Origin: an uncultured Solirubrobacterales bacterium
GTDB lineage: Bacteria > Actinomycetota > Thermoleophilia > Solirubrobacterales > 70-9
Assembly (NCBI GenBank): GCA_963751815.1
Contig: CAVVVY010000009.1
Location: 9,578 to 73,577, forward strand
Reading direction: 5' to 3'
Length of the DNA: 64,000 bases
A model generated the notes under the pieces. That model ran no database searches, had not been told where the DNA came from, and saw only the letters and a program-made list of their open reading frames with translations. Both the position numbers and the translations under genes were made by a program. This document shows, one piece after another, positions 1,856 through 27,433 of this stretch (its first letter is position 1; each line of letters starts with the position of its first letter).

Positions 1856-2658
1856 GCCCCGCCGGCTTTTACCCGGCAGGAGCGGGTCAGCGTCGCCGAC
1901 AGCTCACGCCCGTCCTCGAAGGCCATTTCCGCGAAGACGAACGGAAAGAAGGCCTTCTTGAGGTCGCCGGGAGCCTCGCACGGGGCGGACAGATAGGTCC
2001 GGTGCTGGCCGTGGAAGGTGTAGTTGCGATGGAGACGGAGGCTGATCCGCTTGAGGAAGCCCCAGCGGGTCAGCCCTGGTGGTGAAACGCCGTGCAGGAC
2101 GGTGCTGTACTTGCCCTTGGTGTGGCGGACGTCGAAGACGATGACGTTTGCGTTCGGGGCCGGGTCTTCGCCGTAGACGTGGGCGAGGATCGTCTCGTGC
2201 CCGTGTTCGAACCCGTTGAAGGCGGTGATGCTGCCGTGGGTCGGCGAGCGCGATTGTTCGGGGAAGGTGCTCCTCGCCCGGTAGGTCCCGGTGCCGACCA
2301 GCGCGTCGCGGCACTCTTCGAGGGCCTGCTTGCGCGAGGCGGCGATCAGCTCGCCCTTCTTGCACCGCGGCAGGCCGCGCGTTTCGAGGTGGCCGTTGCG
2401 GTTGAGGGCGAGCGTGATGCTGCTCAGCGACGGCGGGTCGTCGCCCTTCAGCGTCCTCACCTTGCCGTCCATCCAGACGGTGATCGGCGCCAGTTCGTGG
2501 CGGGGCAGCGCGACCGGTTCGATGCCGCCGCTGAAGTTGACGAAGAGGTTGCCCTTCGAGGTCAGCTCCGCTCTCGCGAAGGTCGCCATGACGCCGGCCA
2601 GCACGAGCACAGCCGCCCCCAGGGCAAACGCCCTCCCTTTGCCTGACAGTCCTCTCAT
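1852..2658 (-). CDS. Secreted hypothetical protein, paralog of 8706..9536 (the F family)
   Basis: Intact 268-aa ORF with signal peptide MRGLSGKGRAFALGAAVLVLAGVMATFA. It aligns along its length with the 8706..9536 product: GGIEPVALPRHE vs GGIKPRKLPRDE, CRDALVGTG vs CGDSLVGRG, YLSAPCEAP...TRSCRV vs YLNASCPVP...VRSCRV. Its stop overlaps the next start (ATGA). Confidence 0.75.
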   Translation of the reverse strand: MRGLSGKGRAFALGAAVLVLAGVMATFARAELTSKGNLFVNFSGGIEPVALPRHELAPITVWMDGKVRTLKGDDPPSLSSITLALNRNGHLETRGLPRCKKGELIAASRKQALEECRDALVGTGTYRARSTFPEQSRSPTHGSITAFNGFEHGHETILAHVYGEDPAPNANVIVFDVRHTKGKYSTVLHGVSPPGLTRWGFLKRISLRLHRNYTFHGQHRTYLSAPCEAPGDLKKAFFPFVFAEMAFEDGRELSATLTRSCRVKAGGA

Positions 2659-4065: not shown

Positions 4066-4491
4066 TCAACCCCGCAGCCGGCGCACCCGGCTGCGGACGA
4101 ATCGGGGCCATGACCGCGGCCGCCGCGCGGCGGCGAGGAGGAGCGGGGTCGGGTCGAAGTAGGAGATCCGCTCGGTCGCCAGCCCGTCCTCGCCGATGAC
4201 GAGGCGGTCGATCGCCTCGAGGGTGATCGGCCGGCCACCGAGTCGGCCTCGGAGGATGAGCTCGATCAGGACGCCGTCCTCGGTCGCCCCCCAGCGCCGG
4301 ACCTCTCCGGTCAGCCCCTCGATCAGGGAGAAGATCTCGGCGAACGCGTCGCGGCCGTCCTCGAGGGTCACGGTCGTCGGGGTCATCGGGGTGACGAGGC
4401 GCACCCGCTCACCGAGCACCTCGCCGAGTCGCTCGACGCTCGGGGCCGACCAGAAGTCCGCGAAGCGGTCCACGTACTCGCCGGCGGTCAT
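4066..4491 (-). CDS. NTF2/SnoaL-like domain protein
   Basis: Intact 141-aa ORF (YVDRFADFWSAPSVERLGEVLGERVRL...GRPITLEAIDRLVIGEDGLATERISYFD). Its 4-nt overlap with 4488.. suggests co-transcription with the TetR gene. Confidence 0.65.
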   Translation of the reverse strand: MTAGEYVDRFADFWSAPSVERLGEVLGERVRLVTPMTPTTVTLEDGRDAFAEIFSLIEGLTGEVRRWGATEDGVLIELILRGRLGGRPITLEAIDRLVIGEDGLATERISYFDPTPLLLAAARRPRSWPRFVRSRVRRLRG

Positions 4492-5099
4492 CCGGACCCC
4501 TCGAGGATGCGATCGGTCGCCCGGCGGGCGAGGTCGAAGACCCGGCGATCGCCGCTGAGGCGGTGGCGGGAGTTGGCCCCCATCACGACCGCGTAGAGCT
4601 CGAAGGCGACCCGGTCGGGCTCGTCGAGGCCGGCGAGCGCGGCCTGACGCTCGAGCTCGCCGAGCCAGGCGTCGATCGCGGCGGCGATCGCGTCGCGGAC
4701 GGGGCCCGGCCGGTCGTCGTACTCGGCGGTGGTCGCGGCCCAGAAGCAGCCGCCGGAGTACGGCGACGAGTCGAGGTAGGCGAAGTAGGAGTCGACCATC
4801 GCCCGCAGGCGGGGGGCGCCCTCGGGCGCCTCGGCGGCGGGCGCGAGCACGGTGCGGGTGAAATGGAGGGTCGCCGACTCGACCGCCGCAAGCTGCAGGT
4901 CCTGCTTCGAGCCGAAATGGGCGAAGAGGCCGCTCTTGCTCATCTCCATCTCCGACGCGAGGCGCCCGATCGTCAGGCCCTCGAGCCCGTCGGTCGAGGC
5001 GAGGTCGACCGCCCGCTCGAGGATCGCGGCTCGGGTCTCCGCGCCCTTGCCGGCCTCCGGGGGCGCCGCGGTGGGGGTCTTCGCCTCGATCGGGTCAGG
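4488..5099 (-). CDS. TetR/AcrR family transcriptional regulator (start codon unresolved)
   Basis: The ORF track starts at 4949. The same frame upstream encodes the HTH (ETRAAILERAVDLASTDGLEGLTIGRLASEMEMSKSGLFAHFGSKQDL). That frame is open from 5099, just after an in-frame TAG at 5100-5102. There is no ATG, GTG or TTG before 4949. Confidence 0.75.
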   Translation of the reverse strand, partial: PDPIEAKTPTAAPPEAGKGAETRAAILERAVDLASTDGLEGLTIGRLASEMEMSKSGLFAHFGSKQDLQLAAVESATLHFTRTVLAPAAEAPEGAPRLRAMVDSYFAYLDSSPYSGGCFWAATTAEYDDRPGPVRDAIAAAIDAWLGELERQAALAGLDEPDRVAFELYAVVMGANSRHRLSGDRRVFDLARRATDRILEGSG

Positions 5100-7240: not shown

Positions 7241-7921
7241 CTAGCTCCGCAGCGCGCGCTTCGCCTCGTCGCCACCGAGGTAGGGCGTGAGGATGATCTG
7301 GACGAGAGCGGTGGTCAGCTCCGGCATCGGGCCGATCCGGTCGTTGGCGAGACACGATCCGACGATCGAGATCGCGGCGCCGACCGCGGCCTGCTCGGTG
7401 AGGTCGCTGGGCGACCGGGCGTCCGGGCAATTCCGGGAGCCGTCGCGCAGAAGTTCGACCAGCCACTCGTTGGCGGAGATCCCGTCGCGGGCCAGCTGCG
7501 GCTCCGAGGACGGGTGGCTCGAGGCGAGGATGAGACGCGCGTCCTGGGGGAACTCGGCGACGAAATCGAGCGCCGAGGCGACGCCGGCGGCGACGCCGCG
7601 CGGCCACTCCTGCTCGGCGGAGCAGGAGGTGACGATCGTCGCGTGGAGGCGGTCGAAGGCGCGCTGCTGGGCGGCGAGCAGGCAGTCGAATTTGTTGTCG
7701 AAGATCTCGTAGAAGGTCCCGCGCGAGACCCCTGCCTGCTGGATCACATTGGCGACCGCCAGCGCGGCGTAACCCTGGTCGGAGAAGATTTCCGTCGCCG
7801 CGTCGAGCAGCCGGTCGCGCTGGTTCTCGGTGACGAGCGCCTGCGGAATCCCGTGGCGGCCCCGCGGGAGGCGGGATCCGTATTCGACTCCCTCGACGAC
7901 GATCGTGCCCTCGTAGCTCAT
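7241..7921 (-). CDS. TetR family transcriptional regulator
   Basis: HTH region NQRDRLLDAATEIFSDQGYAALAVANVIQQAGVSRGTFYEIFDNKFDCLLAA. I place the start at ATG 7921 (MSYEGTIVVEG...) because the ORF-track start at 7957 lies inside the promoter-like motif. The -10-like hexamer ends 7 nt before this ATG, which suggests a leaderless mRNA. Confidence 0.8.
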   Translation of the reverse strand: MSYEGTIVVEGVEYGSRLPRGRHGIPQALVTENQRDRLLDAATEIFSDQGYAALAVANVIQQAGVSRGTFYEIFDNKFDCLLAAQQRAFDRLHATIVTSCSAEQEWPRGVAAGVASALDFVAEFPQDARLILASSHPSSEPQLARDGISANEWLVELLRDGSRNCPDARSPSDLTEQAAVGAAISIVGSCLANDRIGPMPELTTALVQIILTPYLGGDEAKRALRS

Positions 7922-7926
7922 GTCCA

Positions 7927-7960
7927 GAATAAGAACATGAACGGACCCGTAAGTCAAGGG
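7927..7960 (-). promoter_or_regulatory. Conserved promoter/operator-like motif, copy 1
   Basis: The minus strand reads CCCTTGACTTACGGGTCCGTTCATGTTCTTATTC. That gives TTGACT, a 17-nt spacer and TCTTAT, with the core GGTCCG-N5-GTTC inside the spacer and -10 region. Confidence 0.5.
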
Positions 7961-8705: not shown

Positions 8706-9536
8706 TCAGCGGACGCGGCAGCTGCGGACCGACTCGGTGACGATCTTCTCGCCGCCGGCGAAGCTGTAGGTGGCGCGCGCGAAGGAGAGGAAACCGGCCG
8801 AGAACCCCTCCGGCACCGGGCAGGAGGCGTTCAAATAGCTTTTCCGGTTGCCGGCGTGGTTGTAGATCCGCGAGACCTTGACCGCGAAGCTCGCGACGTG
8901 CGGCCAGGGCCCGACCGAGCGCCTGATCGTCGTCACCAGGACGGTCCGGTTGTCTTCGTTGCGGACCGTGAACGGGATCACGAACGAGGTCGGCGGATCC
9001 ATCGAGTAGGCGTGGGCCCAGACCGCCGGGCGCCCGGCTTTCGTGCGTCCGTTGAAGGTCAGCAGGTTGGCCCTGACCCGGAACGCCGGCTGGTTGGGGA
9101 CGAATATCTGCGCCGAGAGCTCGCCGCGGCCGACCAGCGAGTCGCCGCATGCTTCCGAGCGCCTGTTTGCGTCGTCGTGCTGGTCAGGCGTTCGCGGGGG
9201 CAGACCGGGAGGCCGTGGGTGTTCATCGCGCCCCGCCACGCGAGTTCGAGCCGGATCCAGTTGACCCGTCGGGATCGGCGAGCCGTCGGTGGTCTGGACC
9301 CCTCCGGAGAGGAAGACCGAGACCGGGACTTTTTCGTCTCGCGGAAGCTTCCGCGGCTTGATCCCGCCGTTGATCATCGCGATCACGTTTTCGCGCTGGG
9401 CGCGCTCGGCGCCGGCGGTTCCGGCCCAGCTCGCGACGGCGAGGAGGACGACCAGAGTCAGAGCGAGGCGAGCGCGTTTAGCCCGCAGCAAACGGACGAC
9501 CAGATGAACCTTCGGCCCGCCGTCCGGCTCGACCAT
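8706..9536 (-). CDS. Operon gene F: secreted or signal-anchored hypothetical protein, paralog of 1852..2658. The ORF is open but contains a compensated frameshift pair.
   Basis: 276-aa ORF with a hydrophobic N-terminus, LALTLVVLLAVASWAGTAGA. Between ~9262 and ~9175 a different frame matches the paralog much better: VNWIRLELAWRGAMNTHGLPVCPRERLTS aligns with SITLALNRNGHLETRGLPRCKKGELIA. The listed frame there gives QLDPARTRVAGRDEHPRPPGLPPRTPD. Confidence 0.7.
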   Translation of the reverse strand: MVEPDGGPKVHLVVRLLRAKRARLALTLVVLLAVASWAGTAGAERAQRENVIAMINGGIKPRKLPRDEKVPVSVFLSGGVQTTDGSPIPTGQLDPARTRVAGRDEHPRPPGLPPRTPDQHDDANRRSEACGDSLVGRGELSAQIFVPNQPAFRVRANLLTFNGRTKAGRPAVWAHAYSMDPPTSFVIPFTVRNEDNRTVLVTTIRRSVGPWPHVASFAVKVSRIYNHAGNRKSYLNASCPVPEGFSAGFLSFARATYSFAGGEKIVTESVRSCRVR

Positions 9537-9676: not shown

Positions 9677-12426
9677 TCAGTGCCGCTTGCGCTTGGCGCC
9701 GCTTCGGATGCGACCGCAGGCGGTCTTCGGCGACCGTCTGGCTCGTTTCCCGACCGCTCTGGGCCGTGTAGGCGACTGCGATCTTCGGCGGCGAGGCGCA
9801 GAGGCTTCTTGTGTTGACCAGGTAGCCCTGTTTGCCGCCGAGGAGGTCGAGCTTGAAGTAGCCGATCGGCGCGTCCGGGATCACCGGGACGACCGTGGTC
9901 AGCTTGCCGCCCTTCGAGAAGGATTCAGCCTGCGGAACAAGCCGGACCTGGCCGTCGAGGATGAAGGCGAGACGAGGCAGCTTGCCGAAGCCCGGAGACC
10001 GCGTAGGCGGGGCCGCGTCAGCGGCGCGTCGAGCAGCGGCGTCCTCGTTTCGACCGTTCCGATCGGCTGGCGCCCGGCGCAGGATTCGGCTGCGAGCTGG
10101 GCTTTCGAGCAGATGTTGCCGAGGTGGCGCTGGTCGATCGCGAAGGCTTTCGGCAGGGTGACTGCGAGCGACTTGATGTTGGCGTCGCCGTTGCGGGTGC
10201 GGAGCTCGAACCGCATCCGCGGATTGCGGCTCCGCTTGGTGTCCTTGCGGGTGCCGAGCTGGCGGACGGTCATGCTCGGCTTGAACGGCAGGGCCGAGCA
10301 GTTGACCGCGTTGAAGGACGAGGAGAAGTCGGTAACCGTCCCCTGGTCGCCGATGCCCTGCGAGTCGACCGAGAAGGTCGAGCAGTTGGTCGGGTTGATC
10401 GTGAAGTTCGGCTTGTCGATGTTGACCTCGATCGAGCGCATCCGGATCGGGACGCCCGCCGATGATGCTCGGCACCGTGTCCGAGACCGCGCTCACCTGG
10501 GCGGTCAGCGGGTCGACGTGGAGGGCGACGCGGACGACGACGACGCCGTAGTCATAGGGCCCGGCCAGCGCCGGCGTGACCGCCGCCAGGCTGAGCGGCG
10601 CCCCCTTGAACGGGCCCGGAGAGGTACATCTTCCCGATCGCGTGGAACGGGTGGCCGCCGGGGCCGCGCGGCGACGTTGGTCGTGCCGATCTGGGACGAG
10701 GCGGGGCAGCTCGGGGTCGCCAGCTCGGCGCGGCCGAGCCTCTGGGCGGCGGCGAGGATCGCGGATTCCGGGCAGTAGCCGATGCCGCGCAGGTCGCCGG
10801 TGAAGCCGGGCGGCATCCTGAAGTTGAGGTCGCCGAGGAACTGGTCGCCGTCGTCGCGGTCGAGTTTGAGGTGGAAGTTGGAGAAGGCGCCGGCGTTGGG
10901 TTTGAGGTCCCCGCCTCGAGCCGCGGCTGGAACGGGCGGACCTGGCCCGGGCAGGGGCGCCGTGCGGGCCCTGGCGAGGCCGAAATGCTGCGTCGAGTCG
11001 ACGTCGGGAAGCGATTTCGTTCCAGGGGAAGAAGTGGCGCGCGAGGTCGTAGATCGTGCAGAGGGTCGGGGTCGCGACGAGGCCGCGATCGGAGGCGAAG
11101 AGGTGGATGTCGAAGTCTTCGAACGGGACCTGGGGCAGGTCTTCGAAGTAGACCGTGATCTGCCCGGTCTGGGGGTTCGGTCTGACCGACCCGACCAGCT
11201 TGGCGTGCATGCCGAACCCGTCGAAGATCATGAAGAGCCGGTACTGGTCGCCGGGCTTCGGTTCGCCGAAGTAAAGCGAGCCCTTGAGGCGCCCGTCGAG
11301 CGTCGGCGAGCCGACGCTGAGGGTCCCGATCTTGGCGTTGTCGGGGCATTTGGCCGGGCCCTCGGACCCGAAGTTGGCCTGCGCGTCGGTGCAGGCGCTC
11401 TGGCCGTCGGCGGCGTCCGGGTTGATCGTCAGCCCTTGCGGGAAGGTGACGACCGCGGACTTGATCTCCGAGGGTGAGGCGGCGAATCCCTCGAACTGCT
11501 GGCGCTGAGATTCAGGTCGAGGCCCGACGGCCGAATCGGTTTCGTTGGTCGTCGGACTGGCCGTGGAGCAGCGGTTTGAACGTCTCCGCTCAGCATCCGG
11601 TCATCTCCGGATAGGTGCTCTCGGCATGGGAGAAGTACGCCGGGGTCCTGGTAGGTCTCGACCAAGAGTTTGGTCACGAGGTTCATGGCCGCTGCAGTGG
11701 GTCGGGTTGTCGGTGAACGGCTTGTTGGGAATGCTCGCTTTCGTCGGCGACGGTGATGCAGCTTGCGTCGGCCAGCCCGGGGCAGCCGGCGGATTGCCCG
11801 GGGAGCCCTTGGCGAACCGGTCGTCGTTGTGACTGAGATCGGCGGGGAAGCCCCAGATCGTCAGGTTGACGCGCGGCGAGCGGTGTCAGCTGGGTGATGT
11901 CGGAGACCTTGAAGCGCAGCCCGTAGTCGGTCGCCGTGCGCACCGTGATCGGGATCGCGATCGGGATGTCCAGGGTCGGGACGATGAACTCGATCAGCGC
12001 CGTCTGATCCGCTTGGGGGAGATGTCGTAGAGGGGCGCCGTGCCGAGAAGGTACCGGAGTAGTCGGAGTACCGTGATCAGGCCGAGCTGGGAGTTGGCGG
12101 GCATTGATCGAGGGCGAAGTCCGCGGCGGTGCAGTTGGTGATCGCGTTGATGTTGCCGAACAGGCCCTGCGGGGCGTTGAAGGTGATGTTTTTGGCCGCC
12201 TCGGGGTTGCCGGGATTTTCGAGCGAGAAGTTCGTTTCCAGGTCGGGATGGCCGCCCGCCTGGGTGTAGGGCCCTCCCCCTGCGGGTCGGTCATCGTTGT
12301 CACGAATGATTCGATCTGCTCGCTCGCCATGACCGGCGCGGCCACCGCCAATGAGAGCGCGACTGCCGCCAACAGGGCTACGGTGATCGTTCTTGGGATC
12401 ATTCTTGTGGTCTCCTTGCCGATCAT
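9677..12426 (-). pseudogene. Operon gene E: paralog of gene C (QAGGHPD / Cys-loop family), heavily frameshifted with well over 10 frame changes
   Basis: ATG at 12426 lies 8 nt after the D stop. The signal peptide is MIGKETTRMIPRTITVALLAAVALSLAVAAPVMA. Conserved segments are scattered over all three frames. Examples are IESFVTTMTDPQ, AGGHPDLETNFSLENPGNPEAAKNITFNAPQGLFGNINAITNCTAADFALDQCPPNSQLG, VNLTIWGFPAD and FEGFAASPSEIKSAVVTFPQGLTINPDAADGQSACTDAQANFGSEGPAKCPDNAKIGTLSV. Further examples are MIFDGFGMHAKLVGSVRPNPQTGQITVYFEDLPQVPFEDF, MPPGFTGDLRGIGYCPE, FKGAPLSLAAVTPALAGPYDYGVVVVRVALHVDPLTAQV and PIRMRSIEVNIDKPNFTINPTNCSTFSV. The inferred end is PKTACGRIRSGAKRKRH* (stop at 9677-9679). Confidence 0.6.
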
Positions 12427-12433
12427 CAGCCGC

Positions 12434-15400
12434 TCACCGATCGCCGCGGGTCGAGTGGCGCCGAACGTGATGCTTCCTCCTGTGCTTGGGCTTCCTCACA
12501 CACTTGCCCTTGTGCTTGGAGAAGCCCTTCTTGCAGGCCCCCGACGGGGAGGAATTGCCCGGAGTCCCGGCGATCGTCCCGATCGGAGGCCGGGCAGGGG
12601 CCTGGGTCCCCGGTCCGTGACACTCGTCCGACGCTGCGCAGAGTGCGGGCGGGGGCACATCAAAGAAACCACCTTCAATGCGGGCGTCATAGATCTTCGT
12701 GACCGGGCCGTTCAGGTCCTCATGGGCAAGCGAATCGTGGGTGAAGAAGTAGGCGTCGGTGGCGTCCGCGCCCGCCGAGAGAAGTCCTGAATCGTGGGGG
12801 CTCGAGCCCGCAGAGATCAGGCTGAGACAGTTTCCTGTGAAGGCGAAGTAGTTCGGGTTGTTGTTGCTGGCGACACAGTTCCCAGTCCCGGGAGGCTCCC
12901 ACTCATAGACGTCTTTGCGCCCGTTGGAGTCCAGCAGCGCAATTGCATCGGTCGAGTCGAAGAAGACACGGCCATCGTCGGTCAGGCTGAGGCCGTTTGG
13001 CGCAAGACTCGAATCGCCGATCACTTCCCCGTTGGTCGGGCTGCAGGACACGCACTCCAGTTCCTGTTGGGGGACGTCATAGCGATAAAGCTCAGTGTGG
13101 CCACCGTTGTCGACCTGCGGCAGCAGTTTTTGAACCGAGGGGAAGACCGCATAATTCCCGTCGGGTGACACCTGGAAATCTTCCGTGTGCCGTACGTCGG
13201 CGTCCTTGATTGCACGAACAACGGTCGAATTGTCGATGGGGCCCGGCCGAGGAGTGAAAACGGCGATGTGGTCTCCCACCGATGCGTAGATGACGCCGGT
13301 GTTGCCATTGATCGCGACCCCGCGAGAGCCGGGCGCGATGTCGGCTGATCCGAAGGTCCTGAGCTTGTTCCCCGATGAGTCAAACCTCAAGAGCTGGGTG
13401 CCCTCGTCGACGTAGAAGTCTCCGTTGATCGCATCGGTTGAGACTGCATTCGCGTTGAGCGACACTTTGTTCGGTTGTGAGATTTGCCTGGGGAATCCAA
13501 GCGTCAGGTCGGAGGTATGGGCCAGCCACATTTCGCCGCTGCTGTACGTTTCGCCGAAGATGACGTTGCCCGAACCGGCAGCAATCTCACACGGATAGAG
13601 AACCGGGACGCCGAAACCTCCAAGGGTGAGACCTCCGGTGTAGTCGGTCTCTTTCGGGTACGCACCCGAGGGCGTGTAGCGCCAAACCTGATTCGAGTAG
13701 TCGCCGACGTAAACGCTGCCGGTGTCGTGGTCCACCGCAACTCCACACGACTCGCCGAATCCGCCGTTGTAGTTGCCGGAGCCATTCAGGGTCGACAGGT
13801 ACTCACCCGTTGAGTCGAAAATATCGATCCCTCCGAAACTGGCGACGTAGATGTTCCCGCTCGCCGGCCCTTTCGAATCGTCAACGGCCACCTCGGAGGC
13901 GGACGGGCCATCGAAGGCGAATGAGCCAAAGGGAGCGGGGAGCGTGTTGCCGGAGCACGTGCCGCAGGTGAAGTCGTCGGGACTTCCATCGGGCTTGTAG
14001 CGCGAGACCGTTCCTGCTGCCGAATCGACCACATAGACATCGCCGCTTGTCGAATTGCCGGTGCTCTGGTCGACCGTCAGGGCTTCGGCAGCCGTGAAGG
14101 ACCCGAACGTTCCTGAGAATTCGGCCGGCAGAGGTGGTTTTCCTACGGTCGTGTCGATGGTCGCGACGAAAGTGGGGAGAGGATCCCGGCCTGGCCACAT
14201 ACAGATTCGCCTGGTCCTGGGTGCCGTGCGTGGGACCGTCGAGCAACTCCGGCGAGAGGAAATAGATGGTGCCGTCTCCGGCTGCGACGCCGCCGGCGCC
14301 GCCGATTGCGACCGCGTCGCAGTTGTTTTCACCGGAGACCGAGTTCCAGCCCTCGGCCGGCGAGCAGGCGTCGGTGTCGCCGGTGCCGGAGCCTCCTGTC
14401 GAGAGCCTGGTCAGCTCGGCGCTTGTACTTCCAACGTCTGCCCTAAAGATGTCGGCGCTGGTGTCGTCGTCGGAGGCTCCTGAGGGCACATCGGTCGTCG
14501 TGAAGAACACCTTCGTGCCGTCCGAGGTCATTCCGTCATAGAGCGCGCCGTCGGGAGTGTTCGGCGTCAGTTGGACCGAATTCGGCACCCCGGCGATATG
14601 CATATAGAGGTCATAGAAGTGGTTGCCGGCAGCGTCCGTTGCGACAAGGTCGCCGATCAGGGTCCGCGATCCGTCCCCGGAGACATCGAGCTCGACGACG
14701 TTGGAGCCGTCGGCGAGGGCGCTGCCGGACGTATCGGTCGAAACGATTTCGGTGGTATGGGTTTGGAGGTCGCGGCTATAGATCGTCAGGTCGGAGTTGT
14801 TGCTGTTCGCTCCCGGCTCGAACGCCTGTTTCGAGCCGAACATGAAGTGGGAGCCATCGTCCGAGAACGACTTCTTCACGGTGCCCGCGGAGACCGGATT
14901 CGAGACCGGAATCGAACCGACCATCCCCTGGGTCAGCGTCCCGTCGGGCTGGTGGACCGGCACGCCCTGGCTGCCGTCCGCGAAGCACGGATTGCAGACG
15001 CCGGGGCCGCCGAAGGCGAAGACGCTCAGGCTGGCGTCGGCTCCCTGGAGGGACGAGGAGAACGGAGCCGCTGACGGCGCGTCGGCCGGAATGCCGACGT
15101 ATTGGGTCGTCCAGCCGCTGGGCCCGCGCGTCGCTACGTAGGGATCGATTCCGCGATTGGTCGGGTTGCCGCTGACACCGGGTATCGCGCCGTTGTGGAC
15201 GCCATATAGGACCTGTGAGGGGCTGCTTGCGCGCGGGTAGCCCGAGAATGGGGCCTGGCCCGGCACCAGGCTCGACTCCACGTCGTACCCTCCAGCGTGC
15301 GCAGCTGACACGAGCTCAAACGCCCGACAGTCCAGCAATTGCGTCGCCCCGGTCTGCTGGCGCGCCAGCTTGTTGGCGCAGGTGTCGCTCAGAGTGTCAT

Positions 15401-17508
15401 TGAACGGCTGCGTGGCAAAGACCTTGTCCGGCCCCGACACGCTTCCGACCGAGTTCGTCGCGACAACCCGGTAGTAGTAGGTGGTGTTCGGTTCGAGGCC
15501 CTCGTAGATCCTGCTCTGGCCATCGAAGATGGAGTTCGACCCGATGTGGGCGTCAGAGGCCGGCGTCGAGGCACAGGTGTTGGGCACATCGGAGCACGGG
15601 CTCGTCCCGAACTCGAAATGGTATGTCGTATCCGTGCCGCCCGGATTGACTTCGGTGTTGAATCTCACTCCGTTGGAGTGCACTGCGCTGACCGACTCCC
15701 TCACCTGCGGGAGAACAGGCGCAGTCTTGAGAAACTGGTCGTCGCTCGCGCTGCTGCCGGCAGCGTTGACGGCAACAATCCGAAAGTGATAGATGCTCGC
15801 CGGTTCGAGGCCACTGATGGGGTATTCCTCGGCGGCTTGCTCGCCTACGCCGGGTGAGCCTGCATCGTCTCCTGGCGGATTGGCGGATTTGTGGTTGTAG
15901 CTCGTCGTGGTCCCCCACTCGAAGTAGTAGTGCGTCGAACTTCCATCACCAGTGAAGGAGCCGTTGAGCGTCGCACTCGTCGAGGTGACATTGGTCGCAG
16001 GGTCGGCCCGCAACCCCACGACCTTGTGAAGGATGAATGTCTGATCGGGCCCCGACACCGTTCCTTCCGCGTTCGTGATCACCACCCGATAGTGGTACTC
16101 CGCCTCCGGAGTCAGCCCGCCGACGTCTGCATGAACTTCCGTTGAGCCACTGAAGCTACCCGCGCCCGGGTCGGGTGAACAGGTGGCAGTACCGTGAGAC
16201 GCTCCGCCTCCATACGGATTGGTGCTATCGGCTTGGTAGTCCGCGTCCGCGACGTAGTCGAAGTGGCACCCGCTGATCGCGGATGTGCCGTTGGGATCAA
16301 CCGTGGCGTTCAGCGTGATCGAGGTCGCGCCCAGATTGGATTCGGGTTTGTAGGCGACCGACTCCATCGCCGGGCGCGGGCTGTAGATGTCGACGACCCC
16401 GTGGGTGCCATCGTTGACATACAGATAGCCTTGAGAGTTGACGGCCAACCCGACGACGAAGTCGTAGCAGTAGATGCTCGCGGGCGGGTTGAGGCCGCCG
16501 AAGCACTGGTAACCGAATTCCCCGGCGGGCGCGTCGGAGCCGTCGATGTGGCCGAGATATTCTCCCGACGGAGAGAATTCGTCGACCCAGAAGTTTGCTC
16601 TGTCGGATACGAGGATGTTTTCATTGGTCGGGTCGATCGCGATCCCCCGAATCCCGCAAAGTCTCCCCCCCAGTCGGGGGTCGACGCCGCGGGCGTGTTT
16701 GGGTTCGAAGGGACTCCGGAGGAAGCCGCGGTGATCCGCCGGATGAAAACACCGCTCGGCGCGAACTCGTATATGCCGCGGTTTGTCGGGTTATAGGCGC
16801 CAGCATCGGTGACCCAAATATTGCCGTGGGAATCGACCGCTATCCCTGCCCGATATCGGAATACTGGTCGCCTCCGGCGTATTGCGAAAAGCTTCCATAG
16901 GGTGACCCGGTGATCTTGTTTCCAACGATGTAGCTGGAATTACCCGAGAAGTTGACCGGGTTACCGTAACCATCGAAGACCTGAATGAAGTTATTTCCGT
17001 AGAGGTAGACCCGCCCTCTCGACGGGCCGTTAGTGTTGTCGACCGCAGTGTTGAGCTCGGTGGAGGGTTCCGCCCCCTTCATCTGACCATAGAATTCGCC
17101 GAAATTATCGAAGATGTTGTAATTGAACTGGCCCCCCGGGACCGGGGCGTAGAGAAAGCCGTTCGAGTCGTTGAAGGACGGGCCGTGGACCTGGTTTCCA
17201 CCACCCCACCGACCACCTCCGTCCTGTTCTCCGATCTTTGTATGCGTCGGATAGGCGTCGTAGTGAGTCAGCACGCTGCCCCTCCCGACGTCGGAGATCC
17301 AAACCGAGTCGTCGCCGCTGTGATCGACGAAAACGCCTCCGGGCTTGCCGAAGCCGGTTATCTGGGAGTCATATGTTCGAGGAGCGAACGCCCCGAACGC
17401 AGGGCTGACAGCGCCTGCCAGCACAACAAGAATCGCGCACAGGGTCGCGAGGCCGGCTACTCGCGGGTAAGCCCGGGCTGAATTCGCCGACTTGGAGTGC
17501 ATCTTCAT
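12434..17508 (-). pseudogene. Operon gene D: ~1690-aa secreted protein with three frame changes. Modules in order: NHL-like propeller, 3 fn3/PKD-like units, TolB-like propeller, second NHL-like propeller, TolB-like module, Cys/His/Lys tail.
   Basis: The RBS AAGGGAG lies just upstream of ATG 17508. The signal peptide is MKMHSKSANSARAYPRVAGLATLCAILVVLAGAVSPAFG. The gene joins several pieces. The first is 16840..17508, part of ORF 16840..18222. The second is an unlisted frame at ~16645-16850 (GIAVDSHGNIWVTDAGAYNPTNRGIYEFAPSG). The third is ORF 13881..16448, whose frame is open upstream to ~16645. The fourth is ORF 12434..14332, which is real from ~14175 (VATIDTTVGKPPLPAEFSG). Frame changes fall at ~16850, ~16650 (next to G runs) and ~14175. 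Confidence 0.7.
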
Positions 17509-17531
17509 TGGCTCCCTTGGTCTCAACATGC

Positions 17532-20269
17532 CTAACGCACCGCCCTTGCCCGGTGGCCGTCCAAGTTGTCCCTTTGACCGGCATGAGTACGTCAGCTTGG
17601 GCCGGCTGGAGTGCTTCCCGTTGTTGTAACCCCGCATCGCAGCCGCGGCCCGCACGTTTCGACCGCACAGTGTGTCGGTGTTCTGAACGAGCCCTTTGGA
17701 GCCTCCGAGGAGGTCGAGGGAGGCGTGGGAGAAGGGCACATCGGGTACCCCTTCGAATGTCGATCGCAGGCGACCGTTGACGCTGTCTATCCTGGCGGCG
17801 ATTTCAAGATCCACCTGTCCTTCCAGGTCGAGGACCAGGTCTGGAAGTTCGTGGCTCGAGGTGCGCAGGTAGACGGATCCGCTAAGAGGCTGGTCCAGCA
17901 GTGGGGTCGTGATTCTTGCCTTTCCGACCCTTGAGTCGGAAGGACACGCATTCCGCGCGAAGTCGGCCCTGGAGCAGACGCTTCCGATGTGACTATTGTC
18001 GAGCAGCTCCCCTTCCGGCAGGGTCACCGAGATTCGTTTCGGGTTCGCTTCGCCGGGTCCACTGGAGAGCTCGGCATGGATCGCCGGATGCCCCCGCCGT
18101 CGCACCCCGCCGCCCAGTGATATCGACAACTTCGGGTGGAACGGCAGGAGCGCGCAATTGGCGACCTGGTAGTGGGAGACCAGGTCGGACACCGCCGGAC
18201 TGATTTCCTCCGACCGCTGCACCCACGCTGAGTGGGTCGCAGTTCGTGGGATTCAGGGTGAATCCGGGGCGGTCGAGGTTCACTCGGATGTGCCGCAGCC
18301 GAAGCGGGATCCCCTCGACGATCTTCGGCAGACGATCCGTGATCGCGGTGACATGAGCATCCCGCTGGTCGACCTCGAGAGCAGTCCGCACGATCACGTT
18401 CCCGAGGTCATAGGGACCCGACACGGCGGGAACGACGATGGCGAAGCTCAGCGGAGCGCCGTTGTAGGGGCCCGCCAGGTAAACCCTCCCTGACACGTAG
18501 ACCGGCCGCGTTCCGGCACCCGCTCCGACGATCGCCGTACCGACCTGGGAGGCGGCGGGGCAGACAGGGCTCTGCAGCTCGGCAAGTCCGGAGTACGCGT
18601 CGCCTTCCAGTGCGCTCAATGTCGCGTCCGGGCAGTAGGGAATGCCGGCGAGCGTGCCCGTGAAGCCGGGTGGGGTGGTCACGGTCAGGGAGGAAAGTTC
18701 CTGATCTCCGTCGATCCGGCTCAGGTCGATCGAGAACGGACTGTGGGCACCGGCTGTGTTGCCCTGCGAGTTCGCCTGGAAGCCCGGGTTGAATGGCCGG
18801 GTCGGGCCGGGGCAGGGCCGCCCGCCGGGGCCGGAGTCGATCGTGAAGAACTGGGTCGACGTCTGGCTCGGGAGCGCTTCATCCCATGGAGTGAAGGTGC
18901 TTACCACCGGATATGTACCGCACTGTCCGGGCGTTGCCAACAGGCCGCGCTCCGCCCCGAAGAAGTGCAAATTGAACTCGGTGAGAGGGCTCTGGGGCAG
19001 ATCATTGAACGTCGAGACCACCTGGCCCGTCTCTGGGTCCGGGTGAATCGAGCCGGCCAGCTTGATGTGCGTGGCGAATCCATCCGCCGTGAGGAACATC
19101 CGGTATCGGTTTCCGGGCTGAGGATCTCCGATGTAGATCGAGCCCGGAATCGGCTGGGGCAGGGCAGAGCTATCGACGCTGACTGTGCCGATCTTCGAGA
19201 ACTCCGGGCAAATGGCGGCGGCATTGGATCCAGTGCCGATGTTGGCGGCCACGTCTGAGCAGGACGTCTTACCGTCGGCCGCATTCGGATTGAGCGAAAA
19301 GCCCTGTGGCAGAGTGACGGTCGCGGCTTTCAACTCGGATGGGGAGGGGAATTTGGCGCTGAGCAGCTGGGGTACCGTGAGGTCAACGTCAACACCCGAG
19401 GCGGAGTCGGCCTGCGTCGTGGTGGGCCTCGCGCTCAGGCTCGGGTCGAAGTTGAGCTGGTCACAGCCGACGGCGGTGGGCCACGGAGAGCTTGCGGTGC
19501 TTACGCTGCCGTCGTAGCCCTTCACGGTGGCCGTGGTGCTCAACGTTCCCGAGCATTTGGTCGGGTTCTGGAGGAACGGGGTGAGCGGACTGTTCGAGGG
19601 CGTCGGCGTGGTCGGGTTTGCGTTGCTGAACACACGCAGGGCGTCATGGCTGGGATCCGCCGGAACTCCCCACAGCGTCAGGTTGAATGATTGCGGCTCC
19701 GCGAAGTGTGTGAGCTCGGTTTCGGCGGTGAGGCCGTAGTCGCTGCCGGTTCTCGCTTCAAACACGGTGTAGAACGGAATGTTGAAAAATTCGGGCGCAA
19801 GCATGAACGCGAGCAGACCCGCCTGGTTGGGGTTGGGAACCATGTTGTAGACGGGCTTATTTGGGTCGGTGAGGTAAAACCCCAACACCTTGACCGCGAC
19901 GCTGATGACGCCGACCTGGGAATCGGCCGGGCATACGTTACGCACGAAGTCGGCCGCGAGGCACTGAGGTGTTGCGTGAGGGTTGCCGATGAAGCCGGCG
20001 GGGAAATCGAGTTTGAGGTTCTTCGGCTCGTTGCATTGGCAATTTTTCCCCAGGTCGGGTTCACTGGCGGTCTCCCCGGCATAGGAAATCCCGAGATCGG
20101 GGTGACCGCCGGCCTGGACCGAGCTCGGCCCGGCGACGAAGCTCCGGATTTCGATCGCCTTGGCCTGAGGTGCAAGGCCGAGGATGCCGACGAAGAGCGC
20201 GGCGGCAACTCCGCCCAAAATGAACTGCCTTCTGAGTGTCACGCGGTTCACCATCGAGCGATCAACCAT
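17532..20269 (-). pseudogene. Operon gene C: ~900-aa secreted protein of the QAGGHPD / four Cys-loop family with a Tat-like signal. It has one internal frame change and an unresolved 3' end.
   Basis: ORF 17993..20269 (758 aa) starts MVDRSMVNRVTLRRQFILGGVAAALFVGILGLAPQAKA and overlaps the B stop (ATGGTTGA). After ...FTLNPTNCDPLSV (~18225) the conserved sequence continues in the frame of ORF 16840..18222: SDLVSHYQVANCALLPFHPKLSISLGGG...CPSDSRVGKARITTPLLDQPLSGSVYL...LVQNTDTLCGRN...KLTYSCRSKG. That frame runs without a stop into gene D. An out-of-frame TAG at 17532-17534 is the nearest plausible stop. Confidence 0.7.
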
Positions 20270-23200
20270 TCCCGTGCCCCCTAGAGTGCGACTTTCCGTG
20301 AAGCCGGTGCCGCCTGTGCGATTTCCTCGGCTTCTTCTTGCCCGGTGCCGCCTTGGCAGAAGGGAGATTTCCCGATGCCCCCAGATCGGCCCGGGTGCCG
20401 ATGCTCATGCCTGCGGGTTCCGAGCTACTTGCGCCATGGCACTCGTCGGCCGCGGCACAGCCGGGCGGTGGAGGAACAAACGCGAAGCCTCCACCCGTTC
20501 GGGCGTCGTAGATCTTCACGTTGCTGCCGTTTCGATCCTGTTTGACGAGGGTGTCCGTCGTCGAGAAGTACACGTCGGTCCCGTCCGCACTCACCCCAGT
20601 CAAACCGACCACCGAGAAGACCGTGGACAGGCCGAAGCTGTTGTTGGCCGGCGCGGTCCCGCTGGTAATCAGCTGGGGACGCCCGTCGACGTACTCGTAC
20701 ACATCGGTCGTTTGGTTGGTGTCCTGAGGAACCAATTGCTCGTCCGTGTTGAAGAATGTCCGACCGTCGTCAGTCATGAAGCGGCCATCGTGACTCGCGG
20801 TCACGTCCATGCTCGGCGTCTCGCCGTTCGGCAGACAGGACGTACATCTCAAGTCGCCTGTCGCCGGTGTGTAGAGGTAGATCTCGGAGTGCCCCGCGTT
20901 GTCGTAATTGGTGACCAGACTTGACGTCAGGAATGCCATATGGCTGTCGTCCGGCGAAATCTCCATCCGAGCAACTGCTGTGGCGCTGCAGGCCGGCGTG
21001 CCCTGGTTGTAGACACAGGATGGGGAATCCGGCGTGAGGGCTGTCACGAACTGCAGTTCCCCCTCTCTATAGTCGTAAAGGTTTTCCGCGCCTGGGACGC
21101 CATTGTCGCCATCAAGCTGCTCCGGCGAGATGAAATAGATATCGCCGTTACCCGGAGCGACAATGTTCTCGAACTGCGGATTGCCGCCCGCCCCTCCCAG
21201 CTGGTCCGTGTACTGCAGATTGAAGATGTCTTTGCCGAGAACGTGATGATCCCGACATTGCACTTCGTCGTCCACGATGCGTTGCAAGAGTCCGAATTTC
21301 CACTGCTGCCGTCGTTGCCTTTTGAGATCAAGGTGAGAGCACTCGGCGTGCTCTCATTCCACATGTAGAGGTCCTTGCTGGTGTCTTTATCGCTGTCGTC
21401 GGAGGTGAGCCTCTCGCCCGAGGTGAAATAGACCTTTGAGCCGTCCGGCGTCATGTCCACATACTGAACCTGGTGACCCGCAGCTATGTCATAGGTCATT
21501 GCGTCGTCGACCCTCATGAACAGTTCGCCCGGCCCGCTCGTCTTCGCCCACGTGCCGGGTTCCCGTGCTCCTCCGACGGTCATGAGGATGTGAGAGCCGT
21601 CGGTCGAGGTCTCGACTGGCATCGCCTGAAGTGGATCCCCTTCGGAGTCGCGAGACACGATGGAGAGCGTGCCGTCCGCAATATCGTTGTCGTACATGTC
21701 GCCGGGGTTGCCGCCCGGGATGGCCTGTCCCGGAGGAGAGGAGCCGGGCAATCCACCTGGGACAAACGGAATATTCGAAGTGAATATGAAATGGCTCATA
21801 TCGGCCGACGCAACCGTGTGGCCGACGAACTTCTCACCGAACGGCACCGTTGCCACATTGGTCGGCCAACGATCCGTAATTGCCCCCGTCGCTGAGTCGA
21901 CTATGTAGGGCGCATCTGAATGCCCTTTCGGGACATCCGGGAGACCGTAGGCACCCTCTCCCGAGCCGTCGGTCTGGCAGGTGGCGTAGTCATTGACGTT
22001 GCAGTAGTAGTAGCCACGGTCCCAGATCCCGACCTGCGACATGCTGGGATTCGTGAGCACATCCTCGAAATTCCCGGCGTAGTAAGAGTTGTTGTATGCG
22101 AGGTTCCACGGCGGGCCGCCCGACCACACCGCCAGGCTCGACGGAAGGCCCACATACTTAGTGGTCCAGCCTGTGGAGCTCCGAGTGGACAGATAGAGGT
22201 CACCCCTGTGATTCGGAGGACTGCCTGCGCCGGGAACGGCGCCGAAAAGGCCGGCAAACGTCGTTCGCGAAGGAGAGGTCGCCGTCGGGCTCTGGGGCGT
22301 CGGGCCACTGAAAATGACCACCGTGCCGGCGTCTTCCGGCGTGACCAGCTCGTATGCGCGGCAATCCGGGAGACTGCTCGCGTTCGTTTGTTGGCGGACC
22401 GTCTCGTTCGGACAGTTGGGGGGATAGAAGTTGAACGACAGGTCACCGGATTTCGCGGTGCCGTATTCGTTGGTCGCCACGACCTGGAAGTGGTAGACCA
22501 CATGTGGGGTCAGGTCGCTCAGGTGCACGCTGACCGGTTCGGCGGCGTCACTGGCGCTGAGAGCCCCGTCCGGAATCGGAGCACTGAACCCGTATGACGG
22601 TGTTGGTCCATACTCGAATCGGTAGGTGGTCGCCGAGTTGTGCGGATTGATCGTCGCATTCAGGTCCGCGGAGGTGGCCGTCACGTTCGATACCGATTGA
22701 CTGACAATCGCTGGAATCTCCGGGGCCTCGAACGTCACATCCTCTCCGTAGCTGGTTCCGAATGAGTTGGTGGCAACAACCCGATAGTGGTAGGTGTTGC
22801 CGGGGACGAGGCCGACGATGTCGCTGCTTACGGACTGTGTACCGCTGGGCTGCTGATCAGGGCCCACCAGCGGCGTGGTATGCGAATAGCTCGTGGAGGG
22901 GCCCCACTCGAAGTGGTAGGTGGTTGCGTCGTTGGTTCCGAGGTAGGACCCGTTTAGTGTCACCGACGTGGGTTTCAGGTTGGTGGGGGGATCCGTCATC
23001 AGGCTCGTTACCGCAGGCGGTGTCGTGAAGGAAGAGTCTGTGCCTTTGCTGACTCCTGTCGAGTTTTCCGCGACGATCTGGAAGTGATAGGTGTGCCCCC
23101 CTTCCAGGCCGGTGAGTTCAAAGGACAAGGGAGTCATGCCGGCTGTCGGCCCTTGGACCGCGCCCGGCGGAATAGCGGTCTGTTGTCCGTAGGCCGTCGT

Positions 23201-24825
23201 GGGCCCGTAGTTGAAGTACCAGTGCGTCGTTTCATTGGTGCCTTCATAGGAGGCGTTCAGTTTCGCCGCGCCCCGGGTGACTTCGGTTGCCGGCTGTGTG
23301 ACGAGATTGGGGACTGCCAGCTGGGTCGTGAATGACTGGTCAGTCCCTTTGCTGATCCCTTTGGAGTTTTCCGCGACGATCTGGAAGTGATAGGTGTGCG
23401 CCGGTTCCAGGCCCGTGGCTTCGAAGGACAGCGGAGTCGCTCCGACCGTCGGGCCTTCGACCGCGCCGGGCGGAATTGCGGACTGTTGTCCGTACGCCGT
23501 CGTGGGCCCGTAGTTGAAGTACCAGTGCGTCGTTTCATTGGTGCCTTCATAGGAGGCGTTCAGTGTCGCTGTGGTACGTGTGACTTCTGTCGCCGGCTGT
23601 GTGACCAGGCTCGTCACAAAATGTGGCGTGAAGGTTCTGTCTGCGCTCGTGTTGCTGCCACTCGCGTTCCCCACTTTGAGACGGAAGTGGTAGAGGGTCT
23701 CGCCCGTCACGGCACCCGTCACGTCGGCGGTTACATCCTGTTCGCTGGCGTAATTGGGGCCGGGTGAGCAGGGAGCAGTCGCTGGGCTGCTGTAGTTGGC
23801 GGAGGTCGAGAATTCGAACACGCAACTGGTGACTTCACCCCCACCCGCCGGGTCGACGTGGCCGTGCAGCGTCGCCAGGCCCGTCGGTTCGCTGGTTGTG
23901 ACATCCGGCACGATCACGCCGGGGAATCGTTTGATCTTGCTGTTGCTGGCGTCGGCGACAAAGACGTCTCCGCTGGCCTCGTCGATCGCTATCCCCCTAT
24001 AGCTCCCCCCAAGCCCGGACGCAAATTCCTCGATCAGAGTCCCGGTTCGGTTCATACACGCTTACGTTTCCCGTCTGGGCGACATAGACCCGATGGCTCG
24101 TGGCGTCAACGGCCAGGGCCTGGGTGCTGCCCGTACTCACCTGGTTGAATGACGTGTATCCGCTGGCCGCCGTGAACCTGTAGACGGGCCCGTTGTAGTT
24201 GGCGCTGAGAAAGGTCGCCGTTGGCACGGTCGAAGGCGATGTGGCAGGGTCGGCCAGAGCCGGCGCCGGAGACACTGATCGAACCTTCCGAGGATCCGGT
24301 CGAACTGTATTTCTTCACCGATTGGGTGCCGTAGTCGCCAACCCAGGCGTGACCGCTGCCGTCGGTCGCGGCGCCGCAGGGATCGCCAAAGCCGCTGACC
24401 GAGAAGATGCTCGAGCCAGTGGAGGTGAACCCATAAAGGCCACTGTTCTCCGATACGAAGTAGATGTTGCCATTACCGCTGTCGACGGCGAGGTCGGGCA
24501 CTGACCCGGGGGGATTCACAGTGAACGGGAAGCCACCGAGAGGCGTGTAGGTGCCGGGCGTCGATGCGTCGAAGCCGTAGACTCGCGACGAGCCTGAGTC
24601 GAGGACATAAAGGCGGTGCGTGGCCTCGTTGAAGGTGAGAGGCCCGGTGGACCCGGAGAAGCTGGTAGCTCCGGTCCCGTCGGTCCCAAAGGAAGAGGTC
24701 GCAGTCGGGTGGACGAACGCCGCCGACGCCGAGCTCGCTGCAATGGCCAGCATCGATGCCGTGACGGCGATGAGAATTCCAACTCGGTGCGTCATTCGCC
24801 CTCTCTTGTCTCGTCTTTCAGCCAT
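20262..24825 (-). pseudogene. Operon gene B: ~1520-aa secreted protein with three frame changes. Modules in order: NHL-like propeller, 5 fn3/PKD-like units, TolB-like propeller, Cys motif and basic His-rich tail.
   Basis: The pieces 24106..24825, 23997..24275, 21044..24055 and 20262..21287 join into one protein. They are MAERRDKRGRMTHRVGILIAVTASMLAIAASSASA..., FLSANYNGPVYRFTAASGY..., MNRTGTLIEEFASGLGG... (1003 aa) and ...DIFNLQYTDQLGGAGGNPQFENIVAPGNGDIYFISPEQLDG...KIYDARTGGGFAFVPPPPGCAAADECHG...KKKPRKSHRRHRLHGKSHSRGHGNG. Frame changes fall at ~24215, ~24040 (an extra C in AACCGGG relative to the gene A paralog YEPNGKLIEEF) and ~21250. The start overlaps the A stop (ATGGCTGA). Confidence 0.7.
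23061..23666 (-). repeat. Two tandem 303-bp near-identical copies inside gene B, each encoding one fn3/PKD-like unit
   Basis: gagttttccgcgacgatctggaagtgataggtgtgc occurs at 23061 and at 23364. An identical run of over 60 nt, ccgtcgtgggcccgtagttgaagtaccagtgcgtcgtttcattggtgccttcataggaggcgttcagt, is in both copies. The encoded units are LVTQPATEVTR..A.LNASYEGTNETTHWYFNYGPTTAYGQQ.AIPPGAV.GPT.G.TPLSFE.TGLE..HTYHFQIVAENS.G.SKGTD.SFTT. Confidence 0.8.
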
Positions 24826-27145: not shown

Positions 27146-27288
27146 CGCTCTCCTTCCCTTGTCCCCTGGCCACCCGCCGTCGGCCCCGACCCGCTGTGCG
27201 AGTCCCCTGGCCCCGGGCCGGGTGGCCCATTTACTTTTCTCTCCCGCCCTCCGGGTGGCGCTTGCGAGCGCTCCCCCTCAGGCGGCCG

Positions 27289-27322
27289 TAATGAGAACAC
27301 AAACGGACCAGGATGTCAAGCC
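27289..27322 (-). promoter_or_regulatory. Conserved promoter/operator-like motif, copy 4, proximal to operon gene A
   Basis: The minus strand reads GGGCTTGACATCCTGGTCCGTTTGTGTTCTCATT. That gives TTGACA, a 17-nt spacer and TCTCAT, with the core GGTCCG-N5-GTTC. It sits about 140 nt upstream of ATG 27145. Confidence 0.5.
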
Positions 27323-27433
27323 CGTCTTTTCGGTAGAGGCAGCTCCTTCACATCATCTGGCTTTGTAGAGGGGTTTCCATTACAGCGATCGGTGCATAGT
27401 CGGCCAGAAAAAGAGTTTCCAACGTACCGGAAG

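Follow-up and report, generated by a model that had tools for sequence, protein, structure and literature searches.

Basic modules tether several Gram-positive surface proteins to teichoic acids without a covalent bond, as in the case of the GW modules of Listeria InlB or the C-terminal regions of Lactobacillus S-layer proteins. Among the actinobacteria, the mycobacterial surface protein HBHA binds sulfated or anionic glycans through a C-terminal tail rich in lysine. A C-terminal tail rich in lysine also replaces the LPXTG signal in the ScpH protein of Streptococcus sanguinis, where it binds extracellular DNA (bioRxiv 10.64898/2026.05.25.726231). Here we describe a C-terminal tag that can be compared with these systems, found in a stretch of 64,000 nucleotides (nt), hereafter the window, from an uncultured Solirubrobacterales bacterium (assembly GCA_963751815.1, contig CAVVVY010000009.1, positions 9,578 to 73,577). 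The Solirubrobacterales are actinobacteria that abound in soil and whose biology has hardly been studied by experiment. A cluster of genes that we have designated A to F, located at ca. 8.7–27.1 kb of the window on the minus strand, codes for large exported proteins that end, with the exception of F, in a short and extremely basic tail rich in His. The original prediction had singled out the end of gene D and proposed that it was a retention or sorting signal common to A, B, D and E. We have found that a dedicated C-terminal module of this kind is indeed shared by exported proteins, with 228 tailed open reading frames (ORFs) in related loci, 95 cluster representatives in a global search and at least three unrelated protein families, and we tentatively interpret it as a tether that works by charge.

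The tails are real gene products. Minus-strand translation of the flagged segment (12434..12697) gives KIYDARIEGGFFDVPPPALCAASDECHG, 26 amino acids (aa) and CKKGFSKHKGKCVRKPKHRRKHHVRRHSTRGDR followed by the stop codon, and translation in the same strand confirmed the ends of A, B and D, including the spacers of 26 and 31 aa, as they had been quoted. The plus-strand reading of the segment was discarded, as it gives nothing meaningful on translation; the genes are located on the minus strand. Of all the ORF ends found in the window, those of A, B and D alone contain 11 or more Lys plus His within the last 30 residues, something expected by chance in ca. 9e-8 of ORFs (background Lys plus His of 4.9%). 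Arg-rich ORF ends are found elsewhere in the window, with Lys plus His near zero, and correspond to out-of-frame products of DNA with 70% guanine plus cytosine (GC). A similar origin of the tails as out-of-frame artefacts is ruled out by their Lys/His richness, by their conservation in hundreds of ORFs and by their being in frame with long real ORFs; each of the A, B and D tails shares a single ORF with hundreds (at least 340) of upstream codons of real protein. The tail of gene E, PKTACGRIRSGAKRKRH, is encoded by a short ORF in another frame (9677..9880); after frame correction the gene ends in ..TAQSGRETSQTV/PKTACGRIRSGAKRKRH before the stop codon. The correction is supported because this tail fits ..Q-x-V-K-x-K-T-A-C-x-x-K-K-x-K-R-H, the consensus with which C/E proteins end, as known from dozens of intact homologs, so that homology bears out the end originally reconstructed for E. 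The residue-for-residue alignment reported for the tails of A and D holds for the initial 15 positions, C-K-x-G-F-x-K-x-x-G-K-C-V-[KR]-K, without gaps, but the remainder is approximate, one single-residue gap being needed in each sequence to fit the pattern.

What had been described as one feature is made of three separable parts, i.e., the end of a TolB-like domain, a cationic hairpin and a polybasic tail. The first of them, KIYDAR..PPP..C-x5-C-H-G, closes a TolB-type beta-propeller domain and is not part of the shared tag. The original prediction had included PPP..CA..DECHG in the common module, but this motif belongs to the TolB-like domain of the B/D family, to which C-x5-CHG is confined, and it is absent from the A-type and C/E-type carriers. 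The second part is a 12-residue, cationic, single-disulfide beta-hairpin with the consensus C-[KR]-[KR]-G-[FL]-V-[KR]-[KR]-H-G-[KR]-C-V-[KR]-[KR], present in 0–3 copies per protein (some proteins have two or three in tandem) and with the spacing C-x10-C in 155 of 159 cases. In the 134 CHG-type tails the number of Cys after the CHG motif was 0 (72 ORFs) or 2 (62 ORFs) and never odd, which fits an independent disulfide formed outside the cytoplasm; the hairpin is thus a self-contained disulfide unit. AlphaFold2 (AF2) models it with confidence (predicted local distance difference test, pLDDT, 84–90), while the linker and the tail are of low confidence. The term “Cys-bracketed” used originally thus applies to part of the carriers, but not to the 72 CHG-type tails that have no Cys loop, gene B included (its tail is KKKPRKSHRRHRLHGKSHSRGHGNG), or to the C/E type, in which a Cys is followed by the tail with no hairpin; the intact ortholog of gene C, for example, ends in ..SC-RSKKQLGRHLHRARAVR and the stop codon. 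The linker between CHG and the hairpin has 24–31 aa and is made of Pro, Gly, Ala, Ser and Thr.

The third part, the tail proper, comprises 10–36 residues at the extreme C-terminus, predicted to be disordered, with a net charge of +8 to +12.5 and 2.5–5 His (medians per family). Over the 228 ORFs, the tails contained 21.5% Lys, 16.4% His and 21.4% Arg, against background values of 2.5%, 2.4% and 7.8%, so that the three residues add up to 59% of the tail versus 13% of the background, and acidic residues were fewer than 0.5 per 25. Composition is conserved rather than sequence, and the substitutions between relatives with 94% identity keep the charge. The B/D types have a loose R-G-G-x-[KR] finish, and Gly accounts for 23% of their last five residues, compared to 4.5% of the remainder of the tail.

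Using the last 247 aa of D as query we found 171 homologs, all of them annotated as “hypothetical”, devoid of Pfam domains and nearly always with the same layout. A scan for loci, with one genome per species, detected more than 370 related ones, of which the best 80 were analyzed. Among these best 80 all but one came from uncultured Solirubrobacterales, and 6–10 loci per genome are already apparent. The 228 tailed ORFs were found in 1.7 Mb of such related loci. A word-indexed homology search with a profile of the tail alone gave 29 candidates and two matches, and it was replaced by an exhaustive HMMER profile search with hairpin and tail alone against 1.84 billion cluster representatives (E ≤0.001), which matched 95 of them. 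All the matches in a single stretch were located at the extreme C-terminus, and the nine longest, when checked against Pfam, contained NHL with Fn3, InlB-B-repeat or PD40 domains. The matches in multiple stretches were unrelated Cys-rich repeat proteins, either of the TIL/EGF type or with bacterial C-P-x-G-x5-G-x-C-V repeats. The tail is present in orthologs and in many other proteins, and the occurrence of loop and tail in a few further exported proteins of the loci indicates that the tag is portable. The carriers had been considered otherwise unrelated, and this stands for A, B and D against C/E, but A, B and D are related to each other, since a signal peptide, an NHL propeller and Fn3 repeats are common to the three (B and D also have the TolB-like C-x5-CHG domain in common); C/E are the truly unrelated carrier family. 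Pfam and NCBIfam scans of the whole proteins and of the isolated tails retrieved no C-terminal family for the tag. Neither Pfam-A, NCBIfam 20.0 nor the searchable literature describes the tag module, the carrier families or the operon; anchoring through a cationic C-terminus is in itself a known principle.

We propose that the tag is a non-covalent, polyanion-binding tether that keeps exoproteins at the cell surface by charge, a reading to which we assign a probability of roughly 0.45. Each carrier combines a bulky anionic body with a short end of intense positive charge. The bodies have a median isoelectric point (pI) of 4.45 and a net charge of -6.5 per 100 aa, compared to a pI of 7.16 for neighboring control genes, and in gene A a body with pI 4.7 (net -29) is followed by a tail with net +14. 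The carriers have N-terminal signal peptides and look like extracellular adhesin or stalk proteins, with NHL, Fn3, InlB-B-repeat and PD40 domains and chains of Ig-like domains. The conservation of composition instead of sequence is what can be expected for charge-based binding by a disordered segment. Export by the general secretory (Sec) or twin-arginine (Tat) route and formation of the disulfide would take place first, and the tag would then bind a polyanion by charge, non-covalently, the target being most likely an anionic polymer of the cell envelope or the membrane surface. The acidic body (pI ca. 4.5) would be repelled outward and the proteins would remain attached to the cell, forming a system of surface display. 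Binding should be stronger in acid soil because of the protonation of the His residues at low pH, and neither cleavage nor a dedicated enzyme would be required. The idea of a retention tag for anionic polymers or metals put forward originally remains the best class of explanation, in its non-covalent form. Several points weigh against our proposal. The polyanion partner is putative, being deduced from the charge of the proteins, and a literature search on the envelope of Solirubrobacterales and Thermoleophilia, including anionic wall polymers, gave nothing relevant. The combination of the basic, untailed protein F (pI 9.9) with acidic bodies fits an assembly of tails onto proteins equally well, and the loose R-G-G-x-[KR] end of the B/D types could be a recognition element.

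Such an assembly, in which the cationic tail would bind to a partner protein with an acidic body (B with C, D with E) and build a lattice, fibre or coat, is in our view somewhat unlikely. The genes are strictly paired, in the dominant order B, C-type, D, C-type, F, within a highly paralogous operon family of uncultured soil Solirubrobacterales; B is found ahead of D in 44 loci and behind it in one, and the start and stop codons of neighboring genes overlap. The charge polarity is extreme (bodies of pI 4.45, tails of +8 to +12), the untailed partner F is basic overall and the fold class of the C-type proteins includes S-layer proteins and adhesin-like Ig chains, all of which would suit an assembly tag. 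However, a disordered tail of variable sequence is a weak basis for specific assembly, and the tag is also carried by a few proteins that do not belong to the operon families. An unlikely possibility is that hairpin and polybasic His-rich tail act as the address label of a new Thermoleophilia surface system, with a specific receptor, or a step of processing or attachment, that would recognize the hairpin or the R-G-G-x-K/R end. If this were the case, the tag would lock the propeller proteins and their Ig-chain partners into a charge-assembled surface layer or appendage, and it would represent a new class of Gram-positive surface anchoring that would belong neither with the sortase signals nor with the folded wall-binding domains.

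We consider decidedly unlikely that the tail binds extracellular DNA or other anionic components of the matrix or soil, such as acidic exopolysaccharide or clay, and that it is the matrix and not the cell that is decorated. The composition of the tail would suit any polyanion, and ScpH of S. sanguinis is a documented precedent (bioRxiv 10.64898/2026.05.25.726231). However, in ScpH the DNA-binding cleft is also formed with folded FIVAR domains, of which no equivalent was seen here, and the ScpH tail has neither the abundance of His nor the disulfide hairpin. Capture of Zn, Ni or Cu by the His-rich end, perhaps with the Cys, for storage, delivery or metal-bridged attachment, appears very unlikely. 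The enrichment in His (16% of the tail versus 2.4% of the background) and in HH pairs (z = +4) goes in this direction, and the composition resembles that of histatin-5 and other His-rich metal-binding tails, but the HxH spacing is depleted (z = -3.9), Lys plus Arg exceed His by more than two to one, the His content varies widely between tails, many of which are mostly Lys/Arg, and metal-transport genes are not conserved nearby.

Hydrophobic segments were searched for as the maximum 15-residue Kyte-Doolittle mean over the last 80 residues of the 228 tailed ORFs, with a cut-off of 1.6; the median was 0.51 and the highest value 1.47, so that none of the 228 exceeded it. LPxTG-like strings were found in three of the 228 tails. 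A signal for covalent sorting like those of sortases, exosortases or rhombosortases, which an enzyme encoded elsewhere in the genome would cleave and attach, is extremely improbable since, in spite of the extreme C-terminal position, the basic end, the many exported paralogs and the Cys just ahead of the tail in most carriers, the hydrophobic helix is absent from 228 of 228 tails, the carrier families have no common signature motif, no sorting domain of NCBIfam or Pfam matched up to an E-value of 10, no enzyme is conserved in the neighborhood of 79 loci or present among the window genes scanned, and the tail is far longer and more charged than the 3–6 basic residues of known signals. The recognition by a processing enzyme that was contemplated originally is for these reasons unlikely, all the more with a tail that conserves composition and not sequence; the statement that the window has no sortase-like gene held for all 28 window ORFs scanned.

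The coordinates of the features of the cluster are listed in Table 1.

Table 1. Genes and C-terminal elements of the tail-carrying cluster (coordinates of the window).
Feature	Coordinates	Strand	Description
Gene A	24818..27145	-	Intact, 775 aa; signal peptide, NHL propeller, ca. 5 Fn3-like repeats, hairpin, tail
Gene A C-terminal tag	24818..24913	-	C-x10-C hairpin CKSGFVKKQGKC, then VKKKHRRKRHHKQRGAKHG, stop codon
Gene B	20262..24825	-	ORFs 24106..24825, 21044..24055, 20262..21287; two frame breaks in the present assembly
Gene B C-terminal module	20262..20516	-	KIYDAR..PPPPGCAAADECHG, linker, polybasic His-rich tail
Gene C	17515..20269 (3' coordinate approximate)	-	C-type partner, ca. 913 aa if intact
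Gene D	12434..17508 (5' coordinate approximate)	-	ORFs 16840..18222 (3' part), 13881..16448, 12434..14332; frame-broken
Flagged segment, end of gene D	12434..12697	-	KIYDAR..PPPALCAASDECHG, 26-aa Pro/Gly-rich linker, hairpin CKKGFSKHKGKC, tail VRKPKHRRKHHVRRHSTRGDR
TolB-like domain motifs	12610..12640 and ca. 13130..13145 (upstream C-x-x-C, approximate)	-	C-x5-C-H-G with D-E before; C-x-x-C
Gene E	9677..12426	-	Second C-type partner, paralog of C; heavily frame-broken
Gene F	8706..9536	-	Ca. 277 aa; conserved downstream partner; signal peptide, conserved Cys, no basic tail

In gene A the tag is placed directly after the last Fn3-like domain, and a near-identical ortholog version of its tail was found in P0192 and in L082, a relative from a metagenome assembly with 94% DNA identity to the window. 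The start of gene B overlaps the stop of gene A. Its product has a signal peptide, NHL, Fn3 repeats and a TolB-like domain that closes in C-x5-CHG, followed by the 31-aa linker and the tail. Gene D has a B-like architecture, longer and with the hairpin, in the order signal peptide (MKMHSKS..), NHL, Fn3 repeats, TolB-like blades, C-x5-CHG, linker, hairpin and tail. The product of gene C begins with a Tat-like signal peptide (20140..20269, minus strand), whose motif T-L-R-R-Q-F-I-L-G-G is of the twin-arginine type, and continues as a chain of Ig-like beta-sandwich domains. Judging from these signal peptides, the C-type partner may be exported folded via Tat; those of A, B and D look Sec-type. 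No relative of C was found by sequence search in Pfam, NCBIfam or the PDB, and its homologs (more than 1552) are all unannotated. The predicted structure is confident (mean pLDDT 82.6), a chain of beta-sandwich domains that resembles integrin legs, RTX-adhesin repeats, ClfA and the S-layer protein EA1, a resemblance at the level of fold class only (template modelling, TM, scores of 0.1–0.15). Family F has a second paralog in the window (1852..2658, minus strand), both copies finish in ..SCRV[KR], and the family is basic overall (median pI 9.9); searches in Pfam, NCBIfam and the PDB were without match. The region of the cluster (12000..28000) has a GC content of 61–64%, versus ca. 70% in the flanks, which could reflect its amino acid composition (Lys, Asn, Thr, Ser) or a foreign origin.

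The neighborhood was analyzed in 79 loci, 10 kb at each side. The clustering of neighbors included a filter of GC at third codon positions, as without it antisense and out-of-frame shadow ORFs of the high-GC DNA prevailed. The conserved neighbors were F (32 loci), an N-terminally anchored protein of ca. 220 aa (22 loci), a basic protein of ca. 192 aa (10 loci) and TetR regulators. Peptidases, sortases and transferases were absent from the conserved neighbors of the 79 loci. The ca. 220-aa family (29193..29789 in the window, minus strand; 14224..14862 in L001 and 11601..12263 in L022) has conserved Cys, an N-terminal membrane anchor (..LTYANVVAT..) and a C-terminus reading ..YCVYPL[LV]R, and gave no family match. 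TetR regulators are found on both sides of the cluster (7241..7957 and 4488..5099 on the minus strand, 28309..29058 on the plus strand, the latter also with a weak match to the SPOR domain) and in the related loci (24 copies in 14 loci). A group II intron reverse transcriptase/maturase (TIGR04416, E 1e-123) is located beside the clusters in several Solirubrobacterales metagenome-assembled genomes (MAGs), with the copy at 11227..12588 of L041 and six further copies in six loci, and insertion sequence (IS) elements are found near L001. At ca. 6 kb from gene A there is an exported subtilase of family S8 (33444..35987, minus strand), with a Big_13 domain and without basic tail; it was considered as a dedicated processing protease and rejected, as it is not conserved beside other loci. 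Elsewhere in the window, the genes scanned were of an ordinary chromosomal kind, coding for TypA/BipA, RecD2, an acyl-CoA dehydrogenase and one protein of the GGDEF-EAL type.

In the assembly of the window, the coding sequences of B, C, D and E are divided over several frames. In L082, B (1522 aa) and C (913 aa) are intact and A, D and E are broken. The two differ by ca. 50 scattered single-nt indels, which are located in both assemblies, and many of the related records are MAGs with contig names of the long-read style. For these reasons, most of the frame breaks are probably consensus errors. Gene E, with ca. 28 single-nt indels in 2.7 kb compared to L082, may unlike the others be really decaying, i.e., a true pseudogene. 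Gene C has in the window a frame break near 18200 and a gap of 5 nt at ca. 17555 that deletes the stop codon. The tails of A, B and D recur in L082 with substitutions that preserve the charge. In the tail of gene B (20340 in the window and 9927 in L082) there is an indel of 3 nt in a run of AAG (Lys) codons, giving KKK in the window and KKKK in the relative, and the length of the tail appears to drift by slippage of codon repeats, to judge by this pair of sequences.

The C-x5-CHG motif belongs to a separate element, the end of the TolB-like domain, that is worth studying on its own. In the AF2 model of the C-terminus of D, residues 1–166 have a pLDDT above 90, and the top Foldseek matches in the PDB are TolB (E 1e-3, probability 1.00), with a TM score of ca. 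0.35 over ca. 170 columns that supports the fold class only. Pfam gave a weak PD40 match in one homolog of this domain. In an alignment of 60 sequences, C180, D184, E185, C186, H187, G188, C215 and C226 were invariant and an upstream C-x-x-C (C42, C45) nearly so. The model is of low confidence around C-x5-C-H-G and C-x-x-C (pLDDT 52–66). The Cys pair of CHG and the upstream CxxC are probably engaged in disulfides or in a metal site; the four Cys together with His, Asp and Glu are candidates for either a metal site or two propeller-closing disulfides. A haem c site was set aside, as the spacing of C-x5-CH differs from that of CXXCH. Some CHG-type proteins (P0028, P0041, P0045, P0047, P0089 and P0116) have, instead of hairpin and tail, a Cys-bracketed segment of ca. 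60 aa, C..RRAKKNSNRAKRLRR...AKKARRLSKKAK.CRRSS.GNG, that is strongly basic and probably helical.

The operon family represents a large investment, with at least 6–10 loci of ca. 15 kb in genomes of ca. 3 Mb, and all of its components are annotated as “hypothetical”, with C-termini for which there is no domain model. If a charge-based tether is indeed what the tag provides, a short, portable and enzyme-independent element would explain how the outer face of these cells is built from big acidic proteins. It would also provide a simple marker to annotate the surface proteome and a compact, pH-tunable tag for display or immobilisation.

Compared to described systems, the tag resembles the tripartite signals (LPXTG/sortase, PEP-CTERM/exosortase, GlyGly-CTERM/rhombosortase and MYXO-CTERM) in its extreme C-terminal position, its presence in exported paralogs and its basic end. 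However, it has no transmembrane helix, common motif, model match or linked enzyme, and on this anatomy a signal of the sortase type is unlikely in the extreme. The C-terminal beta-hairpin of EGF-like, EB and TIL modules has the same pattern, C-x2-G-[FY]-[VI]-x3-G-x-C-[VI], as the hairpin of the tag. Pfam gave sub-threshold matches to TIL_2 (E 0.005, 17.0 bits with a cut-off of 24) and EB (E 0.027, 15.0 bits with a cut-off of 24.3), spanning only the last hairpin of each model. Together with the multiple-stretch profile matches, they indicate that the hairpin is of a generic EGF-like shape; the traits specific to the tag are the charge of the hairpin and its terminal position. The modules of these families have three to five disulfides and 6–10 Cys, whereas the tag has a single disulfide, two Cys and an extremely cationic loop at the terminus. 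Being below the gathering thresholds, the tag hairpin is not a member of them. Short cationic loops closed by one disulfide are also found in thanatin, bactenecin and the “Rana box” of frog peptides. Histatin-5 is a disordered sequence, rich in Lys, Arg and His, that binds anionic surfaces. However, these are free host-defence peptides, and the tag is fused to proteins of 700–1600 aa.

HBHA differs in having Lys/Ala/Pro repeats without His or Cys, a coiled-coil body and no signal peptide. ScpH is similar to the tag carriers as a large multidomain exoprotein with Fn/Ig-type domains, a polybasic C-terminal tail and no covalent anchor. However, it belongs to another phylum and to other protein families, and its tail works with FIVAR domains, is Lys-rich and not His-rich, and has no Cys hairpin. 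Among the non-covalent wall-binding modules, neither GW/SH3, SLH, LysM, CWB2, choline-binding nor WxL domains were matched by Pfam or NCBIfam in A, B, C, D or the isolated tails. Like the tag, the GW modules of InlB and the C-terminal regions of the Lactobacillus S-layer proteins are strongly positive and are placed at the C-terminus of exported surface proteins, and they bind anionic wall polymers without the intervention of an enzyme. They are, however, folded domains of 80–250 aa, whereas the tag consists of a 12-residue hairpin and a disordered His-rich tail of 10–35 aa.

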